Assembly (NCBI GenBank): GCA_030167865.1 | Contig: JALAGF010004961.1 | Coordinates: 62,001 to 106,711, forward strand | DNA: 44,711 nucleotides | Direction of reading: 5' to 3' | Source: Craspedostauros australis | Taxonomy: Eukaryota | Shown: positions 8,678 through 39,584 of the stretch, piece after piece | Numbering within the stretch: position 1 is the first letter of the stretch | How the letters are laid out: every line of letters begins with the position of its first letter | The notes under the pieces: generated by a model | The model's input: the letters and a program-made list of their open reading frames with translations, nothing else | What the model was told of the DNA's origin: nothing | Database searches by the model: none | Made by a program: the position numbers and the translations under genes

Positions 8678-9051
8678 CCAAGACCAAGACAGAACGACCT
8701 CAGACAGACAGCAACAAGAAGTGAAGAACGAACGCAATTATCACGGAGGCGAGAAGTCAGTCAACCATCCTCAACTTGACAGCCACTTCATAGCTGTGCT
8801 CTGCGGCCACATTCTCGCGCCATTCACACCCGTCCATCTCCATCCACAAGAGGAGCTGGGATGTCCTGTTGAGACATCCGCGTGAGCACATTCGCCAGAA
8901 CCAGCCTCCACAGAGAGACAGAGAGAGACGCCATTGTTCTTGCCATACCATACCAATACTCACGGCAACAACAGCAACAGCAGCAACAACGACGACTACG
9001 GCTGCATCATCTCCATCCGGCAGCCGCTGATCAAGGAGCGCGCGATCCAAG

Positions 9052-11910
9052 ATGCCGTACGTCCGTCCACAAGCCAGAACGGCGGCCAGCATCATCGCGC
9101 TCTACGAGAAGAATCATCCTGCGAAGGTGCAGCAACCGCGTGAAGGCCAGGGGACGAAAGGGAGAATGGGTTTGGGAAAGAGATCCGCATCTCTGGGAGG
9201 GGCTGGGATAAGGTTTGGGAAAGGCGCAGGGGGCAGTGTTGGGGTTGGGGTTGGGGTTGGGACAGCCACGAAAGCAACTGCATCAGCATCTACATCTACA
9301 TCAACTGCGCTATCTACAACTACATCAACTGCGTCAGCTACACCATCTACAACGGCAACTGAAGCAACGAAAGCAACAGCTGAAGCATCCACGAAGAACA
9401 CGAAGACGGCGGTTAGCGCGGCAACGGGAAAGGCCATGACAGCCGGGATGCAGGTCAGAAGGGTGGGAGCGAGGCAGAGGAAGCGGGAGCTGGAGAGTCG
9501 CCTTCTGCAGAAGAAAGCTCCTGCGCCCATCGATACCTCCATTCAGGGCAGAGGCAGCAGCGTCGCCAGCATCACGAGTCACCAGTCCTCCGTCGGGAGC
9601 CATCGCACGCTCAGTACCGTTTCTCACAGGCAGGTGACGCCTCAGCCAGTGCAGCTGCAGCAGCAAGAGCATCAACAGCAGCAACAGCAGCAGCAACAAG
9701 AGCATCAGCAGCAACCCTCCAAGCCCCTTCAAGCGCAGGCACAAACACAACCACAGACAGGGAAGACTCCATCCGCAGTCTCCGCTCCGATATCCGCTGT
9801 AGTCTCACTCATGGATCGATCAGAGTCCCCATCCTGCTCCACAACCATGATGGACGACGATGAGATGGACTCGTCCAGCCTGTCGCTGGCTCCGACAGAT
9901 CATCATCACCACCCCTTTCCGCAGCAGCTCCTGCCAACCCATGACAGCGATGGCGACGACGATGATGACGACGATGAAGGTGTGCTGCGAGCGACGGATG
10001 TCTTCTTCCTCATCGAGAGCCAAGCCTGGGATGATGTCATCAACTTCGTTCGCTCCTTCCCGGAATCGGCTCACGTCGTCAACAACCCGAAGAAGATCGC
10101 GGACCATGCCAATCATGACAACAGCTCCATCGCCGATGCTTCTCTGACCCAGTCCGCCATCAGCAGCAGCCAGCCCTCCATCAAGCAATCCAAGAGCGGC
10201 GGTTTCGAGATTGAGACCGGCGACGTCAATGATACCAATGATACCAACGATACTGATCCAACTGATCCAACCGCCTCCTACAACTACGCATTGCACGAGG
10301 TCTGCAAGTACGAGCCACCGCTCGATGTCGTCGATGTCTTGCTCTTTCACAACCAAGCGGCTGTCGAGAAGGCGGGAGCCGATGGCTACCTGCCCTTGCA
10401 CGTCGCGTGCGCCCATCAATCATCGGCCGACGTCGTGTCAAGGCTGCTGGAAGTGCATTGCATGGCCACGAGGATACGCAGCAACACGCAGCAGGCCTAC
10501 CCGCTCCACCTGGCCGCCAAGCATGCCGCCTGCGAGGAGGTCATCATCGATCTGCTCACGCATCATCCCGACGCGTGGGACATTGCCGATCGCACTGGAC
10601 TGACGCCCATGGACCACGCCATCAACCTGCCCTCCACAAATTCCAACCGCGACATCATCCTCTCCACCTTGGGCTTCGCGCCCGTCATCGTGGCCGCCTC
10701 CGAAGCAACGCAACGCCGGTTGGCCAAGCACCACAACGTGCGTCTCCGCGGTCTGCAGCAGGCGCATCACGAGTTCGTGCGCCAGCTCGAACACCACCAC
10801 AAGACGGAGCAGTCCAGCGGCATCCGCAACCAGCTGCAGATCCAGAACGACCTGGCCGATGAGAAGGACCGCAACATCATGCTGGCGGAGGCCTTGCTCA
10901 AGCAGACGGAGAGTCAGCAGCACTGGGAGGCCCACAAGCAGGCCATGGAACGCACCATCGAACAGCAGGACCTCAAGCACGCGCAGCAGATGGCGACGCA
11001 GGAGAAGGAGTACCAGTCCATCATCGACGACGCCGTAGGCCGCGTCGAGGACCTCCAGGAGCAGCTGCACGACTTTCAGCACACCAAGATGCAGCTCAAG
11101 GACCTGCAGACGCGTTACGAGGAGATCGAGCAGGAGCTGCTAGAGGATCGCAACGACGAAGGCAAGAAGCAAAAGATGATCGACCGCCTGCAGGAGCTCC
11201 TCGCCGCGAAGGAGACTCAGATCCAGGGCCTGCGCGAGCAGCTCGAGAACAACGAGACGGCGCAGCTCGCCGTGTCGCGGTTGGAGATGAAGAAGATGCG
11301 GGAACATTCCGATCATCTGCAGCACCAGCTCCTTGAGGCCAATCGCAAGATCGCCGTGTCGGATCATCGTCTCACCAGCATCAAGAATCAGGTGGCCGCG
11401 TTGACCTACAATCTGCAGAGCTGGGCGATGGATGATGAGTGGGAGCAGCAGAAGGGCGCGTCGCCCAAGGCCGTTGTCGAAGGTATCGAGACGGTATACG
11501 AACAGCAGCAACCACAGCAGTCACACTCGCAGTCAGAGCAGTCACAGTCAGAGCATTCAAAGTCACACTCACAGTCTCAACCACAGCAACAGTCACAGCT
11601 GCTGGTGAAGGTCAATCCGTCTCAGCAACAACAAGACAGACAAACCCCACCTCCTTCTCTGCAACAGCATCATCGTCAACAACAGCAACAACTGATGCTC
11701 ATGCAACAGCATCTGCATCACCCGCAACAGCAGGCGAAACAGGGCGCACCCAGCGACCGCACGTTGGCAACGGCCCTCTCCACAGAACGAGACGAGAGCA
11801 TTCACCGCGTCGATGACGACGAATTGACATTCGCCTCGAGGCAAGGTCATTCGCTCATCTTGCACGCCAAGGACCGGGAACCTGTCCAGAGCTGCGGATT
11901 CTCCGTGTGA
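9052..11910 (+). CDS. Ankyrin-repeat and coiled-coil protein with poly-Q and low-complexity regions, 952 aa
   Basis: Ankyrin-like repeats YALHEVCKYEPPLDVV, GYLPLHVACAH, AYPLHLAAKH and GLTPMDHA. A long coiled coil follows (LQEQLHDFQ...LTYNLQ). Poly-Q tracts occur at both ends. Confidence 0.85.
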   Translation: MPYVRPQARTAASIIALYEKNHPAKVQQPREGQGTKGRMGLGKRSASLGGAGIRFGKGAGGSVGVGVGVGTATKATASASTSTSTALSTTTSTASATPSTTATEATKATAEASTKNTKTAVSAATGKAMTAGMQVRRVGARQRKRELESRLLQKKAPAPIDTSIQGRGSSVASITSHQSSVGSHRTLSTVSHRQVTPQPVQLQQQEHQQQQQQQQQEHQQQPSKPLQAQAQTQPQTGKTPSAVSAPISAVVSLMDRSESPSCSTTMMDDDEMDSSSLSLAPTDHHHHPFPQQLLPTHDSDGDDDDDDDEGVLRATDVFFLIESQAWDDVINFVRSFPESAHVVNNPKKIADHANHDNSSIADASLTQSAISSSQPSIKQSKSGGFEIETGDVNDTNDTNDTDPTDPTASYNYALHEVCKYEPPLDVVDVLLFHNQAAVEKAGADGYLPLHVACAHQSSADVVSRLLEVHCMATRIRSNTQQAYPLHLAAKHAACEEVIIDLLTHHPDAWDIADRTGLTPMDHAINLPSTNSNRDIILSTLGFAPVIVAASEATQRRLAKHHNVRLRGLQQAHHEFVRQLEHHHKTEQSSGIRNQLQIQNDLADEKDRNIMLAEALLKQTESQQHWEAHKQAMERTIEQQDLKHAQQMATQEKEYQSIIDDAVGRVEDLQEQLHDFQHTKMQLKDLQTRYEEIEQELLEDRNDEGKKQKMIDRLQELLAAKETQIQGLREQLENNETAQLAVSRLEMKKMREHSDHLQHQLLEANRKIAVSDHRLTSIKNQVAALTYNLQSWAMDDEWEQQKGASPKAVVEGIETVYEQQQPQQSHSQSEQSQSEHSKSHSQSQPQQQSQLLVKVNPSQQQQDRQTPPPSLQQHHRQQQQQLMLMQQHLHHPQQQAKQGAPSDRTLATALSTERDESIHRVDDDELTFASRQGHSLILHAKDREPVQSCGFSV

Positions 11911-12400
11911 TGTGCATAATCGGATGTGGATTGTGTATCTAGGCATTACATGTACTCTATGTATGATATTATATAAGACGATTCGTGTAGTAATTGATGG
12001 CATAGTATAGGATAAACAGTTGTGTCAGTCCAAGAGTCCAACAAAACATTGCCTGCGTCTTGATGGATGCATCTCTCGCTCCTTGTCTCTGGTTGTGGAT
12101 AGATCTGTCCTTGCTCAGAACCGTAGCCTCTCGACACTTTGATTCACGGGATGACAAGACTGAAATACCAAGAATGACTTTCTTGTTGCGAATCGGCCAC
12201 AATGGAGGTCACAACGACAGCGACCGCAACGCCACGAGGGCGAACATTCCCCACAACCTCTGCCGCACACTGATCGTTGACAACAGGAGCAAGAATAGAA
12301 CCAAGCAGCCATTGCATTCGAAGACTCCGATCAGCGACAACATCAACAGCGACAACAATACAGTAGACAACAGGAACAACCAGCAACAGCAGCCGATACC

Positions 12401-14280
12401 ATGACATCCCGCGTCTTCGACGGTTCCAGCTGGACGCCGGTGCAGGCCGACAACCCTTCCGTCGTGCTGCCCATCCTGCACGGTCAGGAATCCATCTTTG
12501 TCTCTGTCGTGAGCTACCGCGATGGCAAGCGGTGCGGTGAGACCCTCAGGGATCTCTTTGACAAGGCCAAGGATCCCGATCGCGTCGTCGTGGGGTTGGT
12601 GGAGCAGAACAAGGAAGACGATACCTTCTGTGTGGAGGCGTATTGTCAGTTGTATGGTACGTCTTGGTTGTTGTTAGTGTTGTTGTTGTTGTTGGCGTTG
12701 TTGTTATGGTTGATGGTGTTGATGAAGACACGAAGAGAGAACCCTGTTTCATGCACTACCATCGCTTGGTTTGACAATCTCGCGCGCGGATCTCCCTTTG
12801 TGCGGCGCCTTGATGATGCGATGATCGCCATCATTCTCACACCTGCTGCCTACGCATAACCACAACTGCACAAACGCATAACTGCACAAACGCATAACAC
12901 TATGACCACAGGCAAGTCCACCTACCGCAGGGAGACCGTGCGCAAAGACACCTTCAAGGTCATCGTGGAAAATCAGCACGAATGCCCTCGCATCCATCAG
13001 ATCCGCAAAATGGCGGTGCACAGCTTGAGTGCCAAGGGTCCCAGCTACGCCCGCAGCCTGGGACGCAAGATGATCGGCAACGAAGAATTCTGCTTGCAAT
13101 TGGATGCGCACTCCACATTCATCGATGGGTGGGACAATGCCCTCAAGCAACAGTGGAGCATGACGCGCAATGAATTTGGCATCATCAGCACGGCGCCCGC
13201 GTCCGAGTCGGGCAAGCCCGTGCCAAGGCAGTGCAACGTGGGCTTCTTGGACACTCTTGTCCCGACCTTTGCGTCGCCGGCCGATGGCAAGGTGGAGAAT
13301 CTCAAGGCGCCGTTGCTGGGTCATGCCTGGTCGGCAGGATTCAGCTTTGCCAAGTGCCATCTAGAGGAAGCGGCGCCCTACGATCCCTTCATGCCCTACG
13401 TCATGGGCGTGGAACAGTTTGTGCGCTTCGCGAGGTTTTGGACGAGAGGGTGAGTATTGCTTCTGCCTTCGTCTCCCCACCTACCTTCTATACTCATTCG
13501 CCCTCGCCAATGGTGCAACCCAACCGCTAACCCTGCTGTCTCATCTTATCTCTACTTTACATTCACATTCACACTGGCATTTCGTCAACGCGCATGCACA
13601 GATACGATGTGTACACCCCGACCGAGAATGTCGTCTTCCATGACTACTCTCCGCAACCAGACGGTCACAGCACGGATGAATGGATGATGAACGCGGATGG
13701 CATGATGCGACGAAGGGCATTGGATCGCGCACGGTCCATCCTCCAGCTTCCCAACCCCGACGATCACGAGCCGTTGGATTTGAACAATCTGGGAATATAC
13801 GGCCTCGGCAAGCGACGTAGCCTGGATCAGCTCGCGCAGTTTGTCGGAATCAATCTCAACAACCAGAAACTCGCCGACAACTTTCAATGTGCCAACCATG
13901 CCTTCGTCACGTACGATGCCAACATTTCACCGCTGGAGCATCTCTATTCGGAACCGCGGGATTTGGAACCGCAACCAGACTTCCCGCTGCGATCCAAGCT
14001 CACGTTCCATCCGCGCGGCGAGATGGAAGACGACGATGATGTGCAATCGGGTTTGGCCAGCCGCCTCGATGCCATCGCAAAACAGCAAGCATCCCATGAC
14101 AATGCGGGTCCCTTCCCACCCACCGGCACTCTGTTCTTCCTGTGGATAGCGGGATTGATTTTTTGGTACATCGTGTTCGTCCATCTTCCCAACAAGCGAT
14201 TTCTGGCATCGAAGGGGAAAGGATTGCCAGTCACGACGAGGCGGAAGAAGGAACCGCTCATGAGCAAGCGTAAAGATTAG
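12401..14280 (+). CDS. GT60-family / Skp1-hydroxyproline GlcNAc-transferase-like glycosyltransferase with a C-terminal TM helix; 3 exons (12401-12656, 12912-13449, 13602-14280), ~490 aa
   Basis: Motifs SIFVSVVSYRD, AKGPSYAR, QLDAH (DxH), WSAGFSF, PYDP and spliced FWTRG|YDVYTP. Two GT-AG introns restore the frame in phases 1 and 2, and the exon total of 1473 nt is divisible by 3. Hydrophobic LFFLWIAGLIFWYIVFVHL precedes a basic tail. The 5' end is uncertain. Confidence 0.85.
12657..12911 (+). other. Intron 1 of the GT60-like gene (255 nt, phase 1)
   Basis: Donor G|GTACGT at 12657 and acceptor CACAG at 12911. Splicing joins YCQLY-G-KSTYRR in frame. Confidence 0.8.
13450..13601 (+). other. Intron 2 of the GT60-like gene (152 nt, phase 2)
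   Basis: Donor GG|GTGAGT, internal GCTAAC branch-like site and acceptor GCACAG. Splicing restores the conserved WTRGYDVYTP. Confidence 0.88.
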
Positions 14281-14967: not shown

Positions 14968-16611
14968 CTAAGCGCTTTTGACCTCATCGTAGGCCCACTG
15001 GAGCCATGGGCAGAGTGCCTCGAGATCGGCCTTCTCGACTGTGGATCCGCACCAGATGCGAATGGATGGCGGGGCGTCACGGTAACCTCCGATATCGTAG
15101 GCAACATCCTCGGTCTCCAGCAGGGCGACGAACTTCTTGATCTGATCGGCATCCAAATCCAGCGTCAGGCAAACGGAGGTGGAGGAACGTGTGGCTGGGT
15201 CCTTGGCGAGGAAGTCGATCCATTCGTTCTGCGCGACAAAGTTTTCGAGGACGCCGAGGTTGTCCTCGCTCATCTTGATGAGAGCGTCGACGCCACCAGA
15301 AGCGTCAGCCCACTCCAGGGCGTCGATGTAGTCCTCGACAGCGAGCATGGATGGTGTGTTGATGGTGGAACCTTTGAAGATTCCGGCATCGACCTTTCCC
15401 TTCTTGACCATGCGGAAGATCTTTGGCAGAGGACGGTTCTCCGGTGTGTAGGACTCCAATCGTTCGACGGCGCGTGGGCTGAGGATGAGGATACCGTGGG
15501 CACCCTCTCCTCCGAGAACCTTCTGCCAGGAGTAGGTGGTGATGTCGAGCTTCTCCCATGGCATATTCATGGCGAAGCAAGCGGAGGTGGCATCGCAAAG
15601 GGTGAGCCCGGTTCTGTCATCGGAGATGAAGTCGCAGCCATCCTCGACGCGGACACCGGAGGTGGTTCCGTTGAAGGTGAAGCAGATGTCGTGATCCGGA
15701 TTGGTCTTGGAGAGGTCTGGGAGACTGCCGTAGTCGGCGGTGAACTCGGTGACCTCGACGGTGTCCTTGAGCTTGAGGTGGGAGACGGCATCCGCGAACC
15801 ATCCCTTGCCGAAGGATTCCCAGTGGCAGATGTCGACGTTGCGCTGTCCGAGGACGTTCCACATGGCCATCTCGTAGGCTCCGGTGTCGGAGGCTGGCAC
15901 GATACCGACGTGGTAGTCATCTGGGACCTTCAGGATGCGCTTGGTCTCGCTGATGGCGAGTGCGAGACGCTCCTTTCCGATCTTGGATCTGTGGGAACGT
16001 CCCATCGTTCTTTGATCCAATGTGCTGACATTGTAGCCTGGGCGCTTCTTGCATGGACCTGAGGAGAATTCTGGGTTTGCTGGCTGCATTCAATAGACGA
16101 CAAGAGCGTGTGCGTGTCATTTTCATTGCGATAATTCAGTTGAGTTGGGTTGTTCAACACATACTCGTAGCATTGGTGTAAATTGAAATCAGATGTTTGA
16201 TGATGGTGGTTTGTGTGAGAGTGCGTGTCTCAGCTGGAGCATTGCGATGAAAGCAAAGGTGCATTCAGTATCATGCACTACGTTCGTGATGTATTCGTCC
16301 GGAGAGTGAGATCACGGACATCAAACAGGCGGGCTCTTAGCAGCGCTTGGCCATCAAGCGAAGAGATGATGCGACCATGGCAACCGTTCATCCCAACGTG
16401 ACAAGAACCACCATTGATGAAGAAAATGGACCTCGTCTTGGCGCTCCACCTGATCGCACAATCAACGACGGGAAAAGCTGAGAAGCGGTGAAACACGGAC
16501 CTTGGCGGCTGGAGCAGCGCTCATCATGCGCAGAGCAGCGAAGGTTGGCTGTCTTGGGAGCTGTCTGGCCTTGGCAAAGGCGAACATTCTTGCGGCTGGA
16601 AGGACTCTCAT
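14968..16611 (-). CDS. serC: Phosphoserine aminotransferase (alphaproteobacterial/Methanosarcina-type SerC) with a predicted mitochondrial presequence; exons 16611-16501 and 16083-14968, ~408 aa
   Basis: Motifs [54 protein letters not shown] (PLP lysine), TINTPSML and [16 protein letters not shown]. Exon 1 encodes [37 protein letters not shown] (R/A-rich, no acidic residues) and ends at a GTCCGT donor. It splices in phase 0 to TGCAG|CCA. Confidence 0.92.
16084..16500 (-). other. Intron of the PSAT gene (417 nt, phase 0), containing a candidate alternative first exon at 16173-16165
   Basis: On the minus strand: AAG|GTCCGT at 16500 and AATGCAG|CCA at 16084. ATG CTA CGA|GTATGT lies inside the intron at 16173-16159. 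Confidence 0.8.
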
Positions 16612-18345
16612 CGTGTTAGGTACTGTTTACGTCTTTGGGATGGCTGCGATGTCTGTTTTGTGAGCGAAGCGGATGCAGAGAAGGTCGACGATGATGGTGA
16701 CGAGATCAACAATGAGATTGACCAGAGACGGAGATGAAGATGAGGATTTTGATGTGTCCCTGGTGGTGGCGATGATGGATTGGATCCAATCGCTCTCGTG
16801 CCGAGTTGTTTGTGGCGATCGGATCCCGTCTTGTTGTTGTTGTGGTCGTGAGGTTGTTTGTTGGGTTCGCATCCATCCACAGCGTCTGTATGTCGTACGT
16901 TCCAAACTTGCGTTGCTCTTGATTCGTCCAAATGGCGATTCTCCGCCACCCATCGGCGGTCTCGGTTACGTGGCTCCCCTTTTCCTCGTTAAGTAACTCC
17001 ATGTCGCGTTCTGTCTGCACGCGCAAGCTGACGACGGCACGTTCACACGTTCTCGTTGCGTGCAGTTGTTCGTGTTTGTGCCCGTCGTTGTGTTTGTGTG
17101 CGTGAGAAGATTCGTAACATTCCCAAACGCAACCATCACATGTCTGTTGGGACATCCCCTTTTGCATTTTCCCTTCTGTTCGCACATGACTTCCCGACCT
17201 TTTCTGTCGACGACAATAGCAGCAGCAGCAGCAACTGTCGCAGGGGTTGGATGCAATGCAATTTCACAAGAGAACAGCAGCAGATGGATGATGCTGTGCA
17301 CTTTCCTTTCTTCACATTACAAGGCATGGCATGGCAGGGCATGGCAGGGCAAGGCCAAGAATAAGCAACAACATGGGCACGGCATGACCATGGAGATGCG
17401 TTGCATCGAATCATTGCAAAAGCAACCAATGCTCCCATGTCGCTGTGAACTGCGGCGCCACTGCAATGACGATAGTCACCATGCTTCGACAACATGGCGG
17501 CAACGGAAAAGGATGAAGCGAAGGAGATGAACGTCGAGGCGATGTTGTACAGTTGATGATTGGAATCCTTCATGGCTGCATTCAACAATGGATGTGGCAT
17601 TTGAACGCCAGTGCGATGGCAATTCACCTGCTGTCGTCTCATTTCCCGAGATCATGGCGCCAAGTTGCCCGCTCCCCACAAGCACGCCCATGCAAGGCGC
17701 GCGCATCATCGGTCATGATACTCCGTCGCGAATGGAATTCAGCAGTTGCAACACAGTCCACAGCAACAATTCATTCAATTTCCGAATGAAGCCACCGTAT
17801 CAGAAGAGTTCAGATCGCAAGGCAAGGCAAGCTTGGCAAAGCGCGGCAATGGCATCATGTCAACTCTGCACGGAAATGCGCCGCATTGCCATGTATTGCA
17901 ACAGCGATCTGTCCACGTTCCAGCGCCATGCGTGCAAAAGTCTGTGGTGCAGCTCGGTGTATCATTCTCCATGTTGGTGTCTGCATCATTGCCCTTCGAT
18001 GGTGGACTCTGGTAGTGGAAAACAGAACCGACGAGACAGAGCGGGTTCGCAGGCGAGGCTTCTACAACTGTCCGATTCCCAATGCGAACAGTGCGATATC
18101 TTCAACTATGACGGACAGCGAGTGTCGGACGAAACCAAAGATACGAGGTTGCTTCCAAACGTGAGGCACCAACAACAGAGAACAAACAACGATGACGATG
18201 ATGACAACGATGCCGCTGACCAAAGTGTATGATACCACCCGTGTATAAGAGCGACACATCGCACCGCTGCATCGACACCATCAACGCCATCACCACAACA
18301 GAACCAAAGACAAGTCCAAACTAACAACAGCCGAGTCGCAACAAG

Positions 18346-21700: not shown

Positions 21701-23232
21701 AAGAGGAACAACCGCAAAGGATACCATCATCGTGATCTCGAGTGAAAGCAGGAGATGGAGGAACATGGACGCACATCAATGCAATACATTCATTGCATCC
21801 TCCAACCATGCACATGAAGAGGGGAGAGACACAAGGGCACACATGCTCGTATGGGCGCACCCATCAGTGGGTTTTGGATACGGTGTCTCTCTTCCTCTCA
21901 TTTTGGTGTCAACAAAAGGTGTCACCAATCCATTCGGCTGGCGCCAAATCAATCAACCGCTCGATCAGTCAGTCCCTCGGGCGAAACGACCCATCAACGA
22001 TGTGACGCCAACTGCGACAAAGACATCGACTACGGAGCTGAGCACAAAGGCCCACCACTTTGACAAAGCCAGCGGCAAGGCGCCATCATGCATGTTGCAC
22101 CATAGTCAACATGATGCTGGATCTCTGCTGTGCTATACTCCATGATGCTCAATGCACCAACATCAATACCAGGATCCAGCCTCAACATGGTGCAGCAAAA
22201 CACAACACAGCACACAACCACGATGACATCGCATCCTTTGATACTACGCCAACGCTCTACCGATACGGCCATCCGCGAGCTACTCCGCCTTCTTCCTTCC
22301 CGCAGTAGTGACCAATGCACAAACACGCGCAACGAAGACAGCAAACCACGACCACTTTCTGTCCAAAATCAACTTGGTGATCGGAGAAGCACAGGCACCG
22401 AATGTTGTCAAGACATCTCCACGATCAAGGACGAACGGGCGTCGTGGCCAGTCGTGTGTTTTCGGGTCTTTTGGTGCCGGAAGCATCTGTCAGCACGAGT
22501 CATTTCGACACAAGATGCTCGCCAATTCTCTGGTACTCAGCCTGAGTGGGCAATCGTGCAAACCGGCACTGTTTTCGGTACTCGAATCTACGCGCAAGAG
22601 CAACTGGTGCTTCAAAATGACTGGCGAAGATCTGTCCTTCCTTGAATCACGGAGGAATGATATCCGATTCGGTGCCTCTCTCAGTACCTCCGCGTCGCTT
22701 CCACGAACAACGTCGTCGTCTCACCCATCCCGATGTTCGCCTCCCTTGCCTTCTGTTCCAACCGTTTTTCGGTTTCGGCCACGCTTTTTCTTCCTTTCGC
22801 TCCCGCGTTCCTTTTGCCTCGCTCTGTCTTGTGACTTTGGTTCACCGGCGCGATGCTGCGTCTCGCTGTCTTGTTGTTCGGATCCAATTCTGTCGCGTCG
22901 CTTCGCGACCACTACACGCGGCTTCTCTCTCATCTCTCTCTCTCTTTCTGTGCCCGCTTCGGTTGCCGTGTGGTGCCGCGCATTCCAACCTCAACATCAA
23001 CAACGATCATTGCCATCAACCACCGATCTACTCTGTGCCTTCTCCTTCTGCCGTGTCCATCATCACCTCCACCAACAAAACACCAATACGCGCACACCGC
23101 ACTGCATGCTTCATCCTCATCCATCCCGCCACCACAACAACAACAGCCGCAACAGCCGCAACAACAGATGTCCACACATCGTCAGTATCAGCAGCAACAT
23201 CGTCATCGTCATCCACCGATAACGAGGCCAGC

Positions 23233-26200
23233 ATGAGCAACGTCCCATTGCCGCCGGCCTCATCTCTTCTGCGACCAACGACGCAACAGCAGGCGCAGCA
23301 ACGACACCAGCTGCCAAACGCACACGCCATGTTCAACTTGGCAGTTGGAGAACCCTCGCAGCCGCTTCAGCAGCAATCCTACGACCAAGACAACGGCAAG
23401 ACGAACACGAAAACGAATGCAAATACAGATGCGGATGGTCTCATGAGGAAGCAATTCGGCCACAGCCAACGCCAAATGCACCAGCAACAACTACAGCCGC
23501 AACAGCAGCGCGAGGCAACAACGTTAACATCTTCATCCGAAGCAATGGTCGCAAGACTCATGGCATCGTCCTCCGCAGCAACAGCTGCTGCATCAACTCC
23601 ATCACGCGCGGTTCATGATACTGCCAATACCCACACGCGTATTCTGGCTCGCACAACAGCAACACTGCCAAACACCCTCCCAGAACAAGGACAGGCGCAA
23701 CAACAACAACAAGGACAGATGGAGGGAGGGATAGATCGTGCACACGAACCAGAACAAGCTCCAAACAGCTTGCGAACTTCGGATGCAAACATGACGTCAC
23801 AGAAATGGCAGAGACATTCTTGGAGAATATCAGAACATCACACACTGACATCGGTGTGTCAGGAAGCTGGGTTGCGACCCGAAGCAGAACATCTTCGTTC
23901 GGTTTCGGCTTCAAAAGATCGCTCACAAGATCTTATCGCCGCTCAGGAGCTGTTGGCTGCAGTACCACCACCCACGCGAAGAACAAGCCCGAGCTCCGCC
24001 ACCGACGACAGCGGTGACAGCGGCGAAGAAAGAAGCAGAAACAACTTCTGCGATCTTCGCGGCACAACCAGAACGGACTCATCATCTCGACAGCAGGCAG
24101 CGATCGCATCGCGCACTCCGGAAACACCGACATCGCTCACCATGTCAGCTGCTGCTTCTGTGGCTGGTACTGGTGCTGTCACGGATCTTTCTCCGAACAT
24201 CCAGCCCGAGACGAGTATTCACAACGCAGAACAGAACCACCATTCGCAGAAAACAGCCAAAGCATTTGTTCCATCAACACAAAACGCAACAAGAACAGCA
24301 ACGCCAACAGCGACAGCAGCAACACCAACCGCAGTAGCAGTAGCCCCATCAACACATGCGAATGCATCCACACTGGCGACCAATGCCAACAACAAGAAGC
24401 GCACAATCATGTCAATATCAACATCAGCAGCATCGTCATCGACGCCATCAACGCCATCAACAGCCAAAGCGACGACAACACCAAGCACATCATCCTCCGT
24501 GACAACACATCAGCCAAAAGTATCTTCTTCCATGCCATCACCGCCAACAACGGCACCATCCACGAAACGCCCAAGGAAACAGATGGGCACGACCATGGGC
24601 TTGGGACTCACCTTGGATCTTGGCGCGATCAACCGAGGCTTTTCGCAGACATCATCGCCATCTTCCATCCCAACCACAGACGCGCTCATGGAACATCAAC
24701 ATCCGCACCAACACCGACGCGTCCTGCATCACAACAGCAGACGCATCAACATGAGTCTGCGTGCAGCCACCGTTGCTGCATCTGCTTCTTCGTCTTTGGC
24801 TTCTTCCATCTCTGTCCCCGCTTTCACAAGCGATGGCCATGCGCCAGACGAGCGAAGGGATCCGCCTGCTGTTGTCGATACTGTGCGAAACACGCCTGCT
24901 GTTGCGCAGAATGGGTCTGCAACAGCACCTCGATCAAGTCTGAACAAGGCTAGCGCACACAATGAGGTCGTTGGCGCAAGCGACACCAACTGCTCTGCAA
25001 CCGCCTCTGCTGCATCATTGGTTACACCACGCACTGGACGCAACTACCAACATCACAGCAGTGAGAGCAGCAGCGACAACACCAGCAGCGATGCTGCGAC
25101 AGGTGCGCGCAATCCTTCTGGCGTCAAGCCTGTGATTGTTCCGCTGAACCTACCCTTGCCATCAAGCGCGTCATTACCGGGTACACGTCTGACATTGTTC
25201 CCATCATCACATGCACCAATCCGAACAAACGACACATCGACCACAGCATCGTCACCGCCAACGCCAACCACGATGTTCACATCTGCATCAAGCAGCAACG
25301 AGAACAACAACAAGAACAACAACAGTGGCAACGCACAGAAGCAGCACGGGCCCAAGCGATTGACCCTGTCGGCCTTCAGACGTCCGGAACAAACGGTCCG
25401 GCTCACCACGTCCGATCCATCCAAGCGGTTGGAACAGGACTACGACTTGATGACATCGCCCAGCATCCTGGGACACGGCACCTTCTCGACTGTGCGCCGT
25501 GGCATCCGCAGGTCGGATGGCAGCTTCGTCGCTGTCAAGAGCATCGCCAAGTACGAGGCACTCAGGTCGAGGCGTTTGCGCCGAGCCTCCGTGGTGGCAT
25601 CCAACACCAGGGCCAACCGCAACGGTGCCAACTCCACCCATGCTCAGAACGGCAGCTGCACCTGCGCAAGCGGCGAGGCTTGTGCTGACAGCGCAGCAAC
25701 AACCCAAGAGCTCGACCTGCTGCTGCCCCAAACATCGAGGCACATGGACGAGTGGGAGATCCTGCACAAGATGCGACACAACCCGCACATTATCACCCTC
25801 TTCGATGTGTACGAGACAGACGACGAGATCCACCTCGTCACAGAGTACTGTCCAGGTGGGGAGTTGTTCGCCGCTATTCGCACCAAGAACGAACGGCAAA
25901 CGACCGCTCCCTCGCGACGGGCACGCTTCTCGGAAGCTCAGACTGCGCACATCGCCAACCAGATGCTGCGCGCGTTGGAGGATCTGCACGCCAACAACAT
26001 CGTGCATCGCGACATCAAGCCTGAGAACATCCTGCTCGTGGACGACGACGAGTCCGACATGATCGTCAAGCTTGCCGACTTTGGCATGGCCAAGAACCTG
26101 CGCGGCACCAGAGGCGCACGCAACAGCGCGTCGACGAAGTCACCACGGTCCCCGTCGCTTTCGAGCACGGAAGACACGGACGGCGAATCATCCCCACCAA

Positions 26201-27195
26201 CACCACTCATGGCATCGGCAGCAGACGCCGCTACCATCGCACCAGAGACCAACCGAGGAGCGCACGGTCCAGCCATGGATATCTACGGTCTTGGTGTGAC
26301 CATCTACATCCTCCTCTGCGGATTCTCACCCGTGTTCTCGGAGGATGGAGTCGTCTTCCCGGACTCCCATTGGAGACAGGTCAGCCACAGCGCCAAGGGC
26401 ATCATCCGGAAGATGCTGCATGCAGATCCCTGCCAGCGCATCACCGCCCGTGATGCCCTCAACAACCCATGGATCCGTCAGCAATCGACGCGAGTCCGAC
26501 GTGGTTCCATCTCTGCCAACTTCGAGCTGGTCCGCGAGCGCCTTGCAAGAGAGCTCCTCCAAAGCCAATCAGCCGCCGCCAGTGCCGACGCAAAACGACG
26601 CATCAGCATCGACCTCACCAAGACGCTGTCCGAGGTGGTGTTGCCACCAACCCCTTCCAAGCCCATTCGCAACACCTCCGAAGGGCCGAACGACCACATC
26701 AGCGTGGCGGTCACTCCAACCCCTCGCAAGCGACCGGCACGTTTGGGAAGGCGCTCGAGGTCGCGATCACGCTCTCGTTCGCGTTCTCCATCCACGAGGA
26801 CTCCGCTGTCGGCGGCATCGCACAAGCGCAAGCTGATGAGCAGGCCGAGTTTCGGCAACACGAAGCGCAGGCGCCAGACCGTTGTCAGCGTGACCATGTC
26901 GGATCTGTTCTCCGGTTGCAACGCCAAGAGAGACGTCCGGGTCACAAGCTCCGTGGAGGAGGACCATGGCGATGAAATCAACGTTGATATCGACGTTGCC
27001 ATTGCTGGTGATGCTCATAGCAACGTGCATCATGATGTCATGCCATCCCCGTCGTCGCATCAAATGGATACTTCAACTGATGGAGTCTCCACTCGTACGT
27101 CCGAAGAGAAGGACACAGCGACGATGGATGTCCCACCTCCTCCACTCACAAGTACAAGCGCCTTCCCGACAAGTCACAACATCGCTTGCGGCTGA
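23233..27195 (+). CDS. Ser/Thr protein kinase, CAMK-like, with a long low-complexity N-terminus and an R/S-rich C-terminal tail (~1320 aa; kinase domain ~25441-26475)
   Basis: Motifs GHGTFSTV, VAVK, DEWEIL, TEYCPGGELF, HRDIKPEN, KLADFG, APE, DIYGLGV and RITARDALNNPWI. The start is placed at ATG 23233 (MSNVP). The frame is open back to 22642, with an ATG at 22657, but that stretch looks like a CT-rich leader. Confidence 0.88.
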   Translation: MSNVPLPPASSLLRPTTQQQAQQRHQLPNAHAMFNLAVGEPSQPLQQQSYDQDNGKTNTKTNANTDADGLMRKQFGHSQRQMHQQQLQPQQQREATTLTSSSEAMVARLMASSSAATAAASTPSRAVHDTANTHTRILARTTATLPNTLPEQGQAQQQQQGQMEGGIDRAHEPEQAPNSLRTSDANMTSQKWQRHSWRISEHHTLTSVCQEAGLRPEAEHLRSVSASKDRSQDLIAAQELLAAVPPPTRRTSPSSATDDSGDSGEERSRNNFCDLRGTTRTDSSSRQQAAIASRTPETPTSLTMSAAASVAGTGAVTDLSPNIQPETSIHNAEQNHHSQKTAKAFVPSTQNATRTATPTATAATPTAVAVAPSTHANASTLATNANNKKRTIMSISTSAASSSTPSTPSTAKATTTPSTSSSVTTHQPKVSSSMPSPPTTAPSTKRPRKQMGTTMGLGLTLDLGAINRGFSQTSSPSSIPTTDALMEHQHPHQHRRVLHHNSRRINMSLRAATVAASASSSLASSISVPAFTSDGHAPDERRDPPAVVDTVRNTPAVAQNGSATAPRSSLNKASAHNEVVGASDTNCSATASAASLVTPRTGRNYQHHSSESSSDNTSSDAATGARNPSGVKPVIVPLNLPLPSSASLPGTRLTLFPSSHAPIRTNDTSTTASSPPTPTTMFTSASSSNENNNKNNNSGNAQKQHGPKRLTLSAFRRPEQTVRLTTSDPSKRLEQDYDLMTSPSILGHGTFSTVRRGIRRSDGSFVAVKSIAKYEALRSRRLRRASVVASNTRANRNGANSTHAQNGSCTCASGEACADSAATTQELDLLLPQTSRHMDEWEILHKMRHNPHIITLFDVYETDDEIHLVTEYCPGGELFAAIRTKNERQTTAPSRRARFSEAQTAHIANQMLRALEDLHANNIVHRDIKPENILLVDDDESDMIVKLADFGMAKNLRGTRGARNSASTKSPRSPSLSSTEDTDGESSPPTPLMASAADAATIAPETNRGAHGPAMDIYGLGVTIYILLCGFSPVFSEDGVVFPDSHWRQVSHSAKGIIRKMLHADPCQRITARDALNNPWIRQQSTRVRRGSISANFELVRERLARELLQSQSAAASADAKRRISIDLTKTLSEVVLPPTPSKPIRNTSEGPNDHISVAVTPTPRKRPARLGRRSRSRSRSRSRSPSTRTPLSAASHKRKLMSRPSFGNTKRRRQTVVSVTMSDLFSGCNAKRDVRVTSSVEEDHGDEINVDIDVAIAGDAHSNVHHDVMPSPSSHQMDTSTDGVSTRTSEEKDTATMDVPPPPLTSTSAFPTSHNIACG

Positions 27196-28739: not shown

Positions 28740-30681
28740 GTGAGTTAAGAGGCAGTAGCAGCAAAGTGCGGCTTTCGTGGTTGATGCCTTGGGAATGCGA
28801 CGGATGGCAATTGATGAGGAGTTGGAGGATGGGTTGGCGGAGGATGTGAACAATTGCCAATGCGTTCCAATAATGGATGACACAGTGATGATGGTGTGTT
28901 GCGAAGGACTCTGGACCTTCGTCAGTCGGCGGTTGATGTCGGCGATGACTGGCTACCAATCAATTGTCTCACAGCAGAGTAAAGTAGTGTCTGGCAGAGT
29001 GAAGTCCTCTCCTCTTGTTGCTTCTCTCTTGCTAATACTCTTTCCCATGATGTCGTTCCGTTTCGCGGAAGGTTCCTCTCGACACCAACAAAGAGAAGAA
29101 ACGGTGGAGAGAACGTGACGATCGTGATGACAGGCGACTTCCGCAATTGGTGTTTCGCTATCGTTGAAAAATTCACGACAATGCGGTTGTGTGAGTATCA
29201 AAAAATAATCGCACACATGCGCGCAGGACGTCACGCTTCGACAAAAATAGAGCTCAAACTTCTTTCCCGTTGCGCACATTCGCGGCCAACCACGATTATT
29301 AATATATTCAAATATGAGTGTGTTCATAAATCAGCGAGTCACGCACGCGGGTCGGGCATCACAATTTGATGCAACATCCTGGATTGGCGAAAACGCAACA
29401 ATGCCGTGACGAAACGGCATCGCCATACCTGCACCTGTCCATCTCACTATCCCAGTTTGAATGTCGCCTCCCACCGTCATCATCACTTCGTCCACAGCCA
29501 GCCAGCCCGGCATCCTGAAGCAAGTGCATGGGTGTGACGGTTGAATGTTGCAGCGAAGCAGCGATCACGATGTGACACGAAAGGATCAATTGTTCATTGT
29601 GTTCTGATCGATTGTGTTGATTCTTCGTGGAGTATAGTAGGGGAGGTTGATTGTCTCCAGCTGCGCTGATTGATTGGATGGGCATTGTATCATAGGCAGC
29701 AATGACTTTGTGCAGACCATGTAAGACATATTGCATTGGCTTGTTCATTGCCGCGTCATGTCTGTATGGTAGCGACAGCCGTCTCCGGTTGCAGAGTGGA
29801 AAGGTGGAACCAGTCAAGATGATGACTCACTGTGCCATACACCTTTTGCCTTCAAACAAACAAGCAATTCGAAGGTATGGTTTGCAGTAAGACAGACCTC
29901 TTCACCGAACAACCATGTTTGCAAGACACGGAATGTGCGGAGCAGAAAGAGATGTGTCGTTCACTGCTACGAGTCGATTCGGAAAAAGGCGCCAACTTCA
30001 ATTCTATATTTAAGAACATAGCCATGACTCCAATTTGGTCGTGAATCTCGTCAAATCGTGTTCGTCGTTTGACTAGATCGACCACAGCTGCACTTTGTCG
30101 AAAAAGTGTCAAGGGCGAGTCCGGGTGATTTCGATCGAACCAACCAACGCATGATGATGGATCAGGCGCCAACACAGAGAAGGAACGAGTGTGGCTGCCG
30201 CCAACCAACGAAGGTACGACTACCCACACTGCGCGCAACCGAGCGAAAGCGACTTCCACGTGGGTATCACGGATCGTTCGTTCATCGCTCTCCGTCCTGC
30301 CATTTCTTGGTTTGGCCTTGGTCGCCCATCCAATCTCACGTTCCATCCATCCATTCCATCCAACAACCAACCGCCCACTCCACGCCGCGGATCCTTCCGA
30401 TTGCCAATTCGGAAGGAGGACAGTGCGGCACTACACATCATTGCATTGCACATCATTGTGTTGTATTATATTGTATTGCATTGAGCTGTGACACACAAGA
30501 GAGTTTGGATCGTCGGTTGTGCCACGGAACAATCCAACCGCGCCGCCTGCTGTCCCATACTCCCCTGCACTCTCAAGGACCGACGATCTGCATCCGCACC
30601 CGAGGCTGCCATTCACGCTGGCGTCATTACTTGGACGCAGCAGAGCACTCGTGCTCCAATCAACCGATCCATCGACCCAAG

Positions 30682-32229
30682 ATGATGAAGACAGCAACGG
30701 CGCAGACGGCAACCATGCCATCAACGATGCTCTGCGTCGCGGCACTGCTCCTTCTGACTGCGCACAATCACAATGCTGCAGATGGCTTTCAGATCACCAC
30801 AACAACAATCATGTCCGGGCGATCGTCGGTCGCATTGCAACAGCCACGCAGACGCAGCACGACTGCCGTGTGGTCTTCGGTCGGTGGCGGTGGAGAGGAT
30901 GATCGACGAAGAAGCAATGGTGGCGACGGCGATGACGAGCTGGGTGGATTCCTCGCTCCCAACGAGGAGTCGGAGAATCTGCTCAAGGCCCGCGAGTACA
31001 TGAGCGAAACGAGCTTGCCGCTGTCCTACGATGCTGATGAGGACGATGTGCAAGCCAACGGTGTCGCTGATGGCAGTAACAAGATCAGCGATGAGGATGA
31101 GAACGACGCCACCAGTGTCGAAGCGGATGCTGACGATGTTGACATTCTGGACATGGACGACGAACCTGTCTCCGATGCAGTTGCTCCACGATCCGCCAAC
31201 GGCAACCCCAATGGATCCATGGTCTACAGCGGCAACACGAATACCAACAACGCAGCCACCAAGTCCGCGCTGTTCGGCCAGAGCGACATCCCCAACGACG
31301 TCCTGGCCAAGAACCCCTACATGCAGGTGGTCTCCAAACTCACACCCTCGGAACTCATCTCCAGATTCACGGCGACCTCGCATCCGCGCGTGCAGGAGGC
31401 GGTCCGCACCACCATCCTGGGCCTCATCGGAAATCTGCCCAAGATGGCATTCGACACCACCACGATAACCACAGGACAGCACCTGGCATCCCTCATGTTC
31501 CAATTGCAGATGACGGGTTACATGTTCAAGAACGCAGAGTACCGTCTCAGCCTCACGCAATCTCTCGGCATGTCACCATCGGAATTCCAATCCTCACAGG
31601 CTTCTCCGCTGCTGCTCACGGGCGATCCTGCGGCTTCCTCGGATGGTGACGACGATGATGAAGATGAGGATCCTCTGGTATCCGGCAAGGTCCGCGGCAA
31701 GCTCAAGGTCCGCTACGGCAACAATGCGCAAGCGCCCGTCAACAACAGCAACGACGACGACGACGAGACATCGAAAACGACACAGCCCAACGGTGTGGAG
31801 ATGGAAGTCGACGCTGCCGCCTACATGTCGGAACTGCGCGCCGAGGTTTCCAGACTGAAGGATGAGCTATCCACGACGCGCAAGGCGAAGGAGGAGGCCT
31901 TGCGCAAGGACCTGCTGTTCTACATCCGCACCTTGCCCAAGAAGGAGCTGCAATCGCTGACCAACACCATGAGTCCCGATGTGCTCGTCGGCATGAAGGG
32001 CCTCGTGCAGGTCGTCCTCAAGGGCATCGGCGACGGCAAGCTGGGACCCGACACCGTCACGGAGCAGTCCAGCGAGGCCATGGCGCAGCTCTGCATGTGG
32101 CAGCTCGTGCTGGGATACAACCTCAGGGAGCTCGAGGTACGGGAGCAGATGAAGAAGAGCCTCAGCGCCATCGCGAGCAGCGATTCGGAAGGCGGGGTGG
32201 ATATCGACGAACCCGGGACGCTGGAGTAG
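30682..32229 (+). CDS. Plastid-targeted DUF760 family protein, ~515 aa (alternative start 30715)
   Basis: Signal peptide MLCVAALLLLTAHNHNAADG|F followed by a T/S/R-rich transit peptide (bipartite, Phe at +1). Two DUF760-like helical motifs: LASLMFQLQMTGYMFKNAEYRLSL and MAQLCMWQLVLGYNLRELEVRE. Also NPYMQVVSKLTP and DLLFYIRTLP. Confidence 0.85.
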   Translation: MMKTATAQTATMPSTMLCVAALLLLTAHNHNAADGFQITTTTIMSGRSSVALQQPRRRSTTAVWSSVGGGGEDDRRRSNGGDGDDELGGFLAPNEESENLLKAREYMSETSLPLSYDADEDDVQANGVADGSNKISDEDENDATSVEADADDVDILDMDDEPVSDAVAPRSANGNPNGSMVYSGNTNTNNAATKSALFGQSDIPNDVLAKNPYMQVVSKLTPSELISRFTATSHPRVQEAVRTTILGLIGNLPKMAFDTTTITTGQHLASLMFQLQMTGYMFKNAEYRLSLTQSLGMSPSEFQSSQASPLLLTGDPAASSDGDDDDEDEDPLVSGKVRGKLKVRYGNNAQAPVNNSNDDDDETSKTTQPNGVEMEVDAAAYMSELRAEVSRLKDELSTTRKAKEEALRKDLLFYIRTLPKKELQSLTNTMSPDVLVGMKGLVQVVLKGIGDGKLGPDTVTEQSSEAMAQLCMWQLVLGYNLRELEVREQMKKSLSAIASSDSEGGVDIDEPGTLE

Positions 32230-32706: not shown

Positions 32707-34422
32707 TCATACCCTGCAGATCGTATGCAAGGATCCCGTCTGGACACTCGATAGGACAGCGCAACCATTCATGCTGCTGCTGCCGTTGCTGTTACTGTTG
32801 TTGGTGGCTGTCCCACATTGAGAGCACTCCGCGCAATGTATCACATTCCAATGCAACTCGGCGTGCTCCTTGCAACAGTAGCTCACCTGATTGCAGCAGG
32901 AGGATGTTAACCGGGATGGATTGCCGCAGAACGCGCATCCATCGCATGGTGCTTGTGAAGGCGACTGGCCGGTGGATGTAGCGTAGGTCTCAGTCTTGGC
33001 GTTGTTGTTGTTGTTGGGATGACTGCGACTATTGTCACAGCCTTCGTCATCTTGCTTGCCGTCGGCGTCAACATCGTTAGCATCATCGTAAGTGCCATTT
33101 TCATGACTGCAGCCTTCGTCGGAAGTTGTCTTACCTGCGCGAAGCGATTGCACTTCCAGCAGCTTGTTCATGGCGCACTTGGAGTACGGATCGCTCTTGC
33201 CACCGCGCAGGAATTGGAGCGTCCGTACGCTCTTTTGGTAGGCTTCTTCCGCCTTTCGTAGGTTGACGTTGGAGAGCATGTCACCGAGCAGTTCGTACGT
33301 GAATGCCGTCGTAATGCTCTCCCCGTGCGGGCCCAGGATGGCATCGCGGCATTCCAGCTGCCTCCTGTAGGAGTCGGCTGCGGAACGGAACTTGCCTTGG
33401 TGCGAGTAGATCTCGGCCTGCAGCAGGAAGCATCGTTCTGCGAGAGCGTGAAGCTCGTGGGGCGGCTTGAGAGTCATGATCCGCTGTGACGCTTCCTGGC
33501 AACGCTTCTCGGTCGACATCGCTTCCAGCTTGGTGATCTCGGAGTCGAGCTCTGATTCGAACTTGAGCATGTCCTTGAGATATTCGGGGGTGGCGTTGCT
33601 TCTGCACTCGGTGCATGGCAGAAACCTTGGTTCCGTGTCCATCATTGGCTGATCCAGAAAGTGGGCGCCACGACAACCATGCCGCATGCACTTGAACCTC
33701 CTGGTGTCGTCGCCCTTGGACGTGCTGCATCTTGGACAGTCGCAGATGAAGCCCTTGTACTTGCGCAAGTCGTCGCGCCGCTGGGTGATCGGCTCGAGCT
33801 CGTTGTTCATGTAGTTGAGGGTGAGCTCCTCGTTTGCCTCGATGGAGGAGATGGCACGCACGATCTTCTGCTTCCCATCGCTGGATGTGTACCACGAACA
33901 GTTCGGCGTACAGGAATGGTTGATCTTGCACGCAATCTCGAAGAGGCCGCTGCCACAATCAACGATCTGGCCAGCCCCGTCAGCATTTGGCGGCTGCAAC
34001 TCGACGGCGTTGTATCGGATGACCATCGCGAAGTCCACGAACTCGGCCTTGTGATCGAGGATGCCACCATCGAAGTCGTCGTCGCATATCTTCTCCTCCT
34101 CCTTGTGAATCTCCTTGTCTCGCAGGTACTTCGTGAGGCACACCGCGTGTGGACAGGTCATGTCTCGGTAGAGATCCAGCGCCTTGGCCTTGACGGAGTC
34201 GCTTTGCTGACAGAATGCCCACCAATCCGTCCACATCTGTGGATCGAACTTGGAGAGGATGGCAGGGAGGGGGCCGGATAGATCCTCGGGACTTCCTCTC
34301 GTGGGCATAACGAATAGAGCCTCTTCTCGGAAGAGCTCGAAGCCCAGCGGGCCCGGGTCGATCTTGGCCGTCGCCTTGATGGCTCTGCCCTTGTCCTCGG
34401 TTTGAACAACTGTGTACAGCAT
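32707..34422 (-). CDS. SET-domain protein lysine methyltransferase (SMYD-like) with post-SET Cys cluster, TPR-like helices and a C-terminal MYND-type zinc finger, 571 aa
   Basis: KGRAIKA, INHSCTPN, EELTLNY and post-SET GFICDCPRC. TPR-like QAEIYSHQGKFRSAADSYRRQLE. C-terminal CAFCG...CCNQVSYCCKEHAELHW..H...C. Confidence 0.88.
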   Translation of the reverse strand: MLYTVVQTEDKGRAIKATAKIDPGPLGFELFREEALFVMPTRGSPEDLSGPLPAILSKFDPQMWTDWWAFCQQSDSVKAKALDLYRDMTCPHAVCLTKYLRDKEIHKEEEKICDDDFDGGILDHKAEFVDFAMVIRYNAVELQPPNADGAGQIVDCGSGLFEIACKINHSCTPNCSWYTSSDGKQKIVRAISSIEANEELTLNYMNNELEPITQRRDDLRKYKGFICDCPRCSTSKGDDTRRFKCMRHGCRGAHFLDQPMMDTEPRFLPCTECRSNATPEYLKDMLKFESELDSEITKLEAMSTEKRCQEASQRIMTLKPPHELHALAERCFLLQAEIYSHQGKFRSAADSYRRQLECRDAILGPHGESITTAFTYELLGDMLSNVNLRKAEEAYQKSVRTLQFLRGGKSDPYSKCAMNKLLEVQSLRAGKTTSDEGCSHENGTYDDANDVDADGKQDDEGCDNSRSHPNNNNNAKTETYATSTGQSPSQAPCDGCAFCGNPSRLTSSCCNQVSYCCKEHAELHWNVIHCAECSQCGTATNNSNSNGSSSMNGCAVLSSVQTGSLHTICRV

Positions 34423-38828: not shown

Positions 38829-39584
38829 GGCACAAGTGACGACGACTTCAACACGATCAGCTGATCCTGCCCTGCTCCACTCTGCAGTATTCCTGGCGTG
38901 CCTTCGTCGTGCGAATGGTTGTGATACGGTTGGAGCGCCCTGCGATACTTTACTCTACTCTGCGAGGCAGTTGACTGGAGGACGAACTGCTCTGTGATCG
39001 GTCTCTTGGTCATCTGCTGAGATTGGCGCGAAGCGAGGAGTGGTTGGGTGGCATTGCTCCTTGTGTTGGCCTAAACCTCGCGCCAGCAACAAAACACAAG
39101 GCGAAACCAACGCCGAATCTCATCGGGTTGCGCCTGTCACTGCTCAACGGATCGATTACTCAATCAGGCTGCGTATTGGTGTCGCTGCGACGCAGATGTG
39201 ACATTATCACAAAAGTCTACAATGGTCAACTTAGGGAGTTTCGCGGCGAGGCACCCAGATCTCAGATGATCTCTCCAGATACAGCAATACTGACAGGCAA
39301 AGAGGATACGAAGAAGAGGGGTGAACGTGGGATTGCAGCCTGACCTGTACTTTGCGAGGCTACATTCTGCTAGGAATAGTGTGGTGTTCTTGCGGGGGGC
39401 AGGACGTAGACACATACTCCACACCTGCACATACGTTGATACTTGCGCTTTCGGACAGCAGTGGTTGGCTGACCTTCCGAGTGTCAATTGGTAATATATT
39501 CGATTGATTTACTCTGCAATTGCTTTTTCTTGCTCTTCAGAAACAGGGACGACGATGAACATCGACATCGAATGCGGAGATTAT

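Follow-up and report, generated by a model that had tools for sequence, protein, structure and literature searches.

Phosphoserine aminotransferase of the diatom Craspedostauros australis: a probable two-exon gene with a conserved mitochondrial-type leader exon and candidate starts nested in its first intron

Phosphoserine aminotransferase (PSAT) and its partner enzymes of the phosphorylated serine pathway, PGDH and PSP, have been predicted to be mitochondrial in oomycetes and diatoms, the predictions covering three diatoms (Abrahamian et al., 2017, PMC5715807). The accessible sections of that study state that the customary cytoplasmic version of this pathway is missing from diatoms and that all stramenopile PSATs are of the TIGR01365 type. 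The present analysis concerns a PSAT gene on the minus strand of a 44,711-nucleotide (nt) stretch of DNA from Craspedostauros australis (assembly GCA_030167865.1, contig JALAGF010004961.1, positions 62,001 to 106,711); the whole stretch is referred to as the window, and all positions are counted in it. The locus is very probably an ordinary two-exon nuclear PSAT gene of a raphid pennate diatom, with a predicted precursor of 408 residues. As far as the accessible sections of PMC5715807 allow comparison, it is similar to the predicted mitochondrial diatom PSATs in its SerC_2 family, in the kind of leader and in being a stand-alone enzyme and not a PGDH-PSAT fusion, and no substantial difference was noted beyond the long leader intron of the window and the leaderless public protein. 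For diatoms, a mitochondrial PSAT has been predicted before (PMC5715807), and a mitochondrial location would follow here from the published reading as applied to an orthologue. An earlier inspection of the sequence (the original prediction) had gone further and proposed that a three-codon first exon within intron 1, encoding Met-Leu-Arg (MLR), lets one gene switch between mitochondrial and cytosolic isoforms. Its observations, the PSAT assignment and the leader exon held up, as did its background of mitochondrial C3 glycolysis and mitochondrial phosphorylated serine enzymes in stramenopiles, which is in print (accessible parts of PMC6198282 and PMC5715807); the isoform switch found no support.

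Other described systems bear on the locus as well. The dual-targeted aminoacyl-tRNA synthetases of diatoms (PMC4494062) and human ELAC2 (PMC3084753), as far as the accessible parts of these accounts go, share a leader-bearing first exon and a downstream start with the layout proposed for the window, and the likeness extends to that layout only. Such genes are defined by two 5' ends or two proteins, whereas the second start in the window lacks transcript, conservation or protein support. No paper describing two locations or alternative first exons for a diatom PSAT came up in searches of the literature library that was used. The placing of a presequence-coding exon of its own ahead of a transferred gene, by exon shuffling or recombination, is discussed in the accessible part of PMC6198282. 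Intron retention has been reported to be widespread and condition-dependent in Phaeodactylum tricornutum, where it affects about 24% of the genes (Rastogi et al., 2018, PMC5859163, accessible part). Similar to those cases, the RNA behind P0122, a public protein record of C. australis, keeps intron sequence, and the records P0010 and P0056 of other diatoms retain the same intron.

The gene product is, as judged from its sequence, a SerC_2-type phosphoserine aminotransferase (TIGR01365/NF002841) with predicted catalysis, because two NCBIfam equivalog models exceed their cut-offs over their full length. In the NCBIfam profile search, the long minus-strand open frame (14968..16089, 373 codons), which covers the whole enzyme model, scored 570.1 bits with TIGR01365 (serC_2, cut-off 448.2) and 592.2 bits with NF002841 (cut-off 477), the latter being a curated phosphoserine transaminase model matched at full length. 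The models SerC_1 and SerC_3 scored far under their own cut-offs. The PSAT identity given in the original prediction is thereby confirmed. The TIGR01365 alignment joined profile positions 1-373 of 374 to residues 2-369 of the 373-residue frame; with profile position 1 lying on frame residue 2, the beginnings of exon 2 and of the bacterial-type enzyme are no more than one residue apart. The closest solved structure was SerC of Mycobacterium tuberculosis (2fyf, E 7.1e-22), and Lys 190 of the 373-residue frame, in the motif SWQK, was aligned to its QK; we take Lys 190 to be the Schiff-base lysine that binds pyridoxal phosphate (PLP), as a candidate only. The homologue set comprised the best 119 non-self proteins, 80-89% identical to the enzyme, with the best non-self match at 89%. 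All species-labelled homologues came from diatoms (Cylindrotheca, Nitzschia, Seminavis, Phaeodactylum, Fistulifera, Entomoneis, Epithemia and Amphora). The closest named proteins were those of Cylindrotheca and Nitzschia, with 85-88% identity, and the identity to the PSAT of P. tricornutum (P0039) was 84%.

The coordinates of exon 1, donor, acceptor, the 417-nt intron and the nested ATG with its GTATGT, on which the original prediction had been built, were all found in the minus strand (Table 1). The ATG at 16611-16609 opens the 37 codons of exon 1 and is preceded five codons upstream by an in-frame stop (open reading frame, ORF, 16462..16626). Intron 1 is of the GT..AG type, with the donor GTCCGT at 16500-16495 and the acceptor CAG at 16086-16084, and exon 2 opens at 16083 with the codons CCA GCA AAC (P A N P E F). 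When the frame of exon 1 is read into the unspliced intron, a stop is reached after 12 intron codons, which gives a frame of 54 residues. The intron contains 13 ATGs in total, and the heptamer GTCCGTG of the true donor (16494-16500) recurs inside it at 16314-16320.

The leader encoded by exon 1 carries seven Arg and Lys residues and no Asp or Glu, with a fraction of Ala, Ser and Thr of 0.35. Its maximum 11-residue hydrophobic moment was 1.24, a value computed without a control set, and its 37 residues precede profile position 1-2 of TIGR01365. Motifs recognized by the processing peptidase have an Arg at -2 or -3. The tetrapeptide RMMS, close to the leader end, fits the pattern R-x-(M/F/L)-S, which is conserved in the orthologues as RWMS, RAMS, RMFS and RFLS. 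The plastid-targeting signal of diatoms is bipartite and consists of a signal peptide and an ASAFAP-type motif; on visual inspection, no uncharged stretch in the N-terminal part of the leader is longer than five residues (VLPAA and MFAFA), which is too short for a signal peptide. Other sources of the intron sequence were considered and set aside. An intronic RNA gene was ruled out, as Rfam applied to 15900-17000 gave no real match (three matches only, E 0.37-0.56, far under the gathering scores) and the intron folded no better than its shuffles (z +0.70). A repeat or insertion behind the long intron was likewise rejected, as blastn of the intron against the window returned only the intron itself (next best E 0.053, 18 nt).

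Table 1. Coordinates of the features of the PSAT locus in the window.
Feature	Positions	Strand	Basis
Possible 5' leader	16612..16648	-	Shares a contig of run X1 (record 3, 16432-16648) with exon 1; kind of run guessed
Exon 1, coding part: 37-codon basic leader of mitochondrial-presequence type	16501..16611	-	Aligns with 16 named or transcript-derived diatom PSAT leaders
Intron 1, 417 nt, GTCCGT...CAG, phase 0, between leader and enzyme domain	16084..16500	-	Same-site intron in related loci
Second nested candidate: ATG 16391, 24 codons, then GTCCGT 16319-16314	16314..16391	-	Scan of the intron
Nested candidate first exon: ATG CTA CGA, then GTATGT	16159..16173	-	Present in the sequence; use unsupported
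Stretch with three in-frame TGAs (16125-16123, 16119-16117, 16092-16090) and out-of-frame ATGs 16126 and 16120	16090..16125	-	Sequence; 72-residue frame 15917..16135
In-frame ATG adjoining the acceptor CAG; opens the 373-residue unspliced frame and P0122	16087..16089	-	Identity of P0122 with the frame in the window
Exon 2, coding part: 371 codons, entire bacterial-type SerC_2 PSAT domain	14971..16083	-	Matches to NF002841, TIGR01365 and 2fyf
Lys codon, candidate PLP-binding lysine	15520..15522	-	Aligned to QK of 2fyf
Stop codon TAG	14968..14970	-	Sequence and open reading frame

Comparison with relatives showed, at the level of sequence, that the distal exon 1 of the original prediction is real: it encodes a leader, it is joined to exon 2 in phase 0, and both the exon and the site of the intron are conserved. 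A full leader fused to the enzyme at a Lys-Pro (K/P) junction was observed in 58 of the 119 homologues (57 by rule, together with P0035), these leaders ending in R-x-x-S, two to nine residues and Lys before P.NPEF, and 5'-truncated versions with the same junction accounted for 10 more. In 39 homologues the junction read Q/P, the result of an ORF call through the CAG acceptor on genomic DNA, and the remaining 12 were mostly K/P read-throughs with an unrelated upstream frame. The carriers of the leader include culture-derived records from all eight of the diatom genera named above. Over its length the peptide of exon 1 can be aligned to the leaders of 16 named or transcript-derived records, which share a beginning of the form M(M)R..PAA...AF.A and an end of the form ...LRMMS.AAP..K. 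The 17 leaders compared are 36-55 residues long with 5-8 Arg and Lys, and Asp and Glu are absent in 15 and number one in the other two. For other diatoms, two pairs of records present the same protein with intron 1 either retained in frame or spliced (P0010 and P0011; P0056 and P0064), and in both pairs the retained reading starts with VR (GTNCGN), similar to the GTCCGT of the window.

A set of 80 related metagenomic loci was in agreement with the protein records. An intron was located at exactly the same site in 28 of them, with CAG as acceptor in 16, TAG in 11 and AAG in one (L054); the leader was contiguous with the enzyme in 50 (47 by rule; L076, L070 and L071 by eye), representing spliced transcripts or intron-less genes, and the 5' part was absent in two. 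After removal of the near-duplicates L008, L031, L058 and L067 from the 28, a non-redundant set of 24 orthologous introns remained, in each of which a leader exon and a GT donor were located. These introns are 86-422 nt long with a median near 200 nt, which makes the window intron the second longest of the 25, and the donors of the 25 vary widely (GTACGT in five, GTGTGT in five and eleven other hexamers). Loci with leader and enzyme contiguous and no intron between them include L037, L039, L040, L079, L080, L070 and L071, some of them on contigs of 8-20 kb. Since this arrangement occurs on multi-kb contigs (L039, L040, L079 and L080), the leader intron is absent in some lineages and hence is not universal.

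The position of the intron is of interest in view of the presequence exons discussed in PMC6198282. Exon 2 and the bacterial family model begin no more than one residue apart, so that the intron coincides with the seam of leader and enzyme. Similar to the cases treated in the accessible part of that paper, exon 1 is leader only, exon 2 encodes the enzyme from profile position 1 onward, and 28 loci have the intron at this seam; they differ in that some lineages here have leader and enzyme contiguous, without an intron. The arrangement looks like that of a leader exon put in front of a transferred gene. The locus provides a clean example of an intron at the seam of an added targeting leader and a bacterial-type enzyme, with the same site in 28 environmental diatom loci.

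The nested ATG (16173-16171) is followed by CTA CGA and by GTATGT at 16164-16159, with 81 nt left to the shared acceptor in phase 0, and three in-frame TGAs lie between it and exon 2. The TGAs, the 13 ATGs of the intron, the ATG at 16089 and a second candidate at ATG 16391 had not figured in the original prediction. A nested candidate was defined as an ATG followed by a stop-free frame to a GT with a donor score of at least 4.7 bits (the weakest true donor), with at least 50 nt of intron left. The donor matrix was built from just the 25 true donors of the intron 1 orthologues, and the chance test was post hoc. By this rule the window intron has two candidates, the second of which has at 16319 a donor, GTCCGT, that is the same hexamer as the true one. 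None of the 24 orthologous introns has any, so the conservation in diatom orthologues that had been put forward as a check on the nested ATG and GT was not found. Among 5000 dinucleotide shuffles of the intron, 33.5% contained a candidate with a donor of at least 4.7 bits. No similarity of intron 1 to the orthologous introns was detectable by blastn (best E 0.76), and a three-residue N-terminus joined to exon 2 was seen in 0 of the 119 homologues and in 0 of the 11 members of the window protein's own 90% cluster. Homologues with two to five residues before P.NPEF do occur (P0009, P0098, P0118 and P0120), and all four end in Gln, that is, in a read-through of the CAG acceptor. The AC-rich sequence preceding the nested ATG, described in the original prediction as a typical leader, is not specific, as A+C richness extends on the sense strand across most of the gene as well as the region upstream of it, and the last 60 nt are more A+C-rich than the first 60 in 16 of the 24 orthologous introns. 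The constellation is somewhat unusual at its donor quality, yet it was picked post hoc and is not conserved, and the micro-exon model is unsupported rather than refuted.

The leaderless record P0122 (sources UniRef and mmetsp) is one of the 11 members of that 90% cluster. It is 373 residues long, is identical at every position to the window frame that begins at ATG 16089, and opens with two intron-encoded residues. The ATG at 16089-16087 follows directly on TGA 16092-16090 and has the acceptor CAG as its second codon, the unspliced frame reading MQPANPEF... The source of P0122, MMETSP, is a transcriptome project. As the record starts at ATG 16089, the assembled RNA must still have contained at least the final bases of the intron ahead of exon 2, and with them some of the 81 nt. 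The simplest account of this RNA is an intron-retaining transcript from which the ORF caller took the longest frame, and the public leaderless record of this organism is probably a mis-modelled N-terminus. The other public PSAT record of the organism, P0001 (JGI/IMG and eukprot), has 345 residues, starts at the internal Met 29 and is likewise without the leader.

An in-frame ATG open to the acceptor was found in 5 of the 24 orthologous introns, at 15-102 nt from the intron end, and in 47.7% of the shuffles; because it is neither conserved nor rarer than this in shuffled sequence, ATG 16089 is regarded as occurring at chance level. Its interpretation as a relic of a bacterial start codon was ruled out, with in-frame ATGs in just these five introns and at varying distances. 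The Met-Met of RMMS was also considered as a conserved internal cytosolic start and was ruled out, as other diatoms have RWMS, RAMS, RMFS or RFLS there; the conserved feature of the leader end is R-x-hydrophobic-S and not Met.

Contigs of sequencing runs (Logan) were consulted as well. None of the runs listed as containing the sequence is on record as RNA. Run X1 contains half of the sampled words, X2 and X3 next to none, and the kind of X1 was only guessed as RNA. Its contigs cover 16083-16239 and 16432-16648 and are colinear with the genome, with no joints. If X1 is RNA, unspliced molecules are not rare in it; if it is DNA, it says nothing on splicing. The gaps in X1 (15517-16082, 16240-16431 and above 16648) are uninformative, as a filter removes records; contig depths, which do not allow parts of a gene to be ranked, and contig ends were not drawn upon either.

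Taken together, a two-exon mitochondrial PSAT gene with unproductive intron-bearing RNA is regarded as highly probable. Exon 1 would supply an N-terminal mitochondrial-type presequence and nothing else, and after import the leader would probably be cut at the R-x-hydrophobic-S motif (RMMS). The nested ATG-CTA-CGA-GTATGT would be a chance constellation in a long intron. The MQ... record would represent an ORF call on RNA that holds at least the 3' end of the intron, either by retention or as unspliced precursor, and not a cytosolic isoform, and such intron-bearing RNA may well be unproductive. Several observations weigh against this interpretation. The sole transcript-derived protein record of the organism, P0122, is leaderless. 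In the protein collection no protein of the organism itself has exon 1 joined to exon 2, although this is a weak blank, and a search with the peptide of exon 1 (42-residue contiguous reference) returned only P0131, a relative's ORF made up of exon 1 and intron with 66% identity; with no spliced protein of this species on record, homology is the sole basis for the spliced form here. The nested donor GTATGT scores 8.58 bits and the true donor GTCCGT 6.43 bits, the fourth lowest of 25, and a candidate with a donor as good as GTATGT appeared in only 1.2% of the 5000 shuffles. Removal of the 81 nt would, as a tidy property, clear every interfering ATG and stop. The X1 contigs bridge both donors (16501/16500 and 16165/16164) unspliced, which counts if X1 is RNA. 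Pfam, finally, assigned no family to the enzyme frame at E <= 0.001. Some of these observations fit a promoter within intron 1, with an RNA start at about 16240-16180, 16173 as the first AUG and splicing at GTATGT 16164, from which a Met-Leu-Arg cytosolic PSAT would arise beside the mitochondrial form. The model is feasible, with its ATG, its strong donor in phase 0 and an 81-nt intron close to the shortest orthologous one (86 nt); splicing would clear the three in-frame stops together with ATGs 16126, 16120 and 16089, and the X1 contig over 16083-16239 covers the region. It is nevertheless very improbable, since both P0122 and that contig keep the 81 nt, no orthologous intron, homologue or cluster member has a counterpart, A+C richness is not specific to leaders, and the second candidate in the intron, together with the frequency among shuffles, indicates that such candidates arise easily. 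The report that diatoms are without the cytoplasmic pathway (accessible sections of PMC5715807) lowers the prior for a cytosolic isoform further, as a cytosolic PSAT would be left without partner enzymes.

An unspliced RNA with its start inside the intron, if translated from ATG 16089, would give a leaderless 373-residue MQ... enzyme. P0122 is exactly this ORF, and the frame spans the whole enzyme model; yet an ORF caller will pick the longest frame in any RNA that carries an intron, be it translated or not, and this start is hardly to be expected. ATG 16089 is the first AUG solely for RNA starting within 16119-16090, as for starts further upstream ATG 16120, 16126 or 16173 comes first, and when an RNA begun at the upstream promoter keeps the entire intron, ATG 16611 and 12 ATGs of the intron come before it. 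ATGs 16126 and 16120 open an out-of-frame ORF (15917..16135) that overlaps it, its context is ttgaATGc, and its occurrence is at chance level and not conserved, as set out above. Overall, a second promoter in intron 1 of the one PSAT gene visible in this diatom (RNA start at about 16240-16100) that yields a leaderless enzyme of either kind (Met-Leu-Arg or MQ...) and, in contrast to what is reported for diatoms, a cytosolic PSAT pool next to the mitochondrial one, with the leaderless record as a real isoform, is quite improbable, and dual targeting of this PSAT by any route is distinctly unlikely. Regulated retention of intron 1, in which the splicing efficiency of the weak donor GTCCGT sets the amount of mitochondrial PSAT and the retained RNA makes no enzyme, would account for the assembly of an intron-bearing RNA in a species whose spliced form is absent from the records. 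The low rank of the donor, the length of the intron and the 54-residue frame (16462..16626) that stops inside it are in line with such control, as is the widespread and condition-dependent retention in P. tricornutum (PMC5859163, accessible part). A single assembled transcript is, however, uninformative on regulation, the transcriptome records of other diatoms are spliced, and regulated retention is considered unlikely.

The two-exon interpretation affects annotation in the main. The leaderless public protein of 373 residues would look cytosolic to any localisation predictor, whereas the conserved leader exon lies 417 nt upstream in the genome and a precursor of 408 residues is the correct one. 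Were the alternative start true, the picture of a mitochondria-only phosphorylated serine route in diatoms would be revised; no evidence in this analysis favours that.

The neighbouring frames are those of ordinary eukaryotic genes, the G+C content is 0.50-0.585, and several long frames of the window gave no Pfam match. A GlcNAc-type glycosyltransferase gene (PF11397) at 12299-14280 on the plus strand is made up of three abutting frames, which implies two or more short introns. It and the PSAT gene are convergent, and their stop codons are about 690 nt apart. Other frames of the window match ankyrin (9031-11910), DUF760 (30073-32229), SET (32707-34509) and ERGIC/ERV (37071-38954). A 1524-residue frame at 22621-27195 (+) has a C-terminal protein kinase domain, and a 919-residue frame at 39585-42344 (-) contains six copies of DUF7640 (E 9.6e-69).

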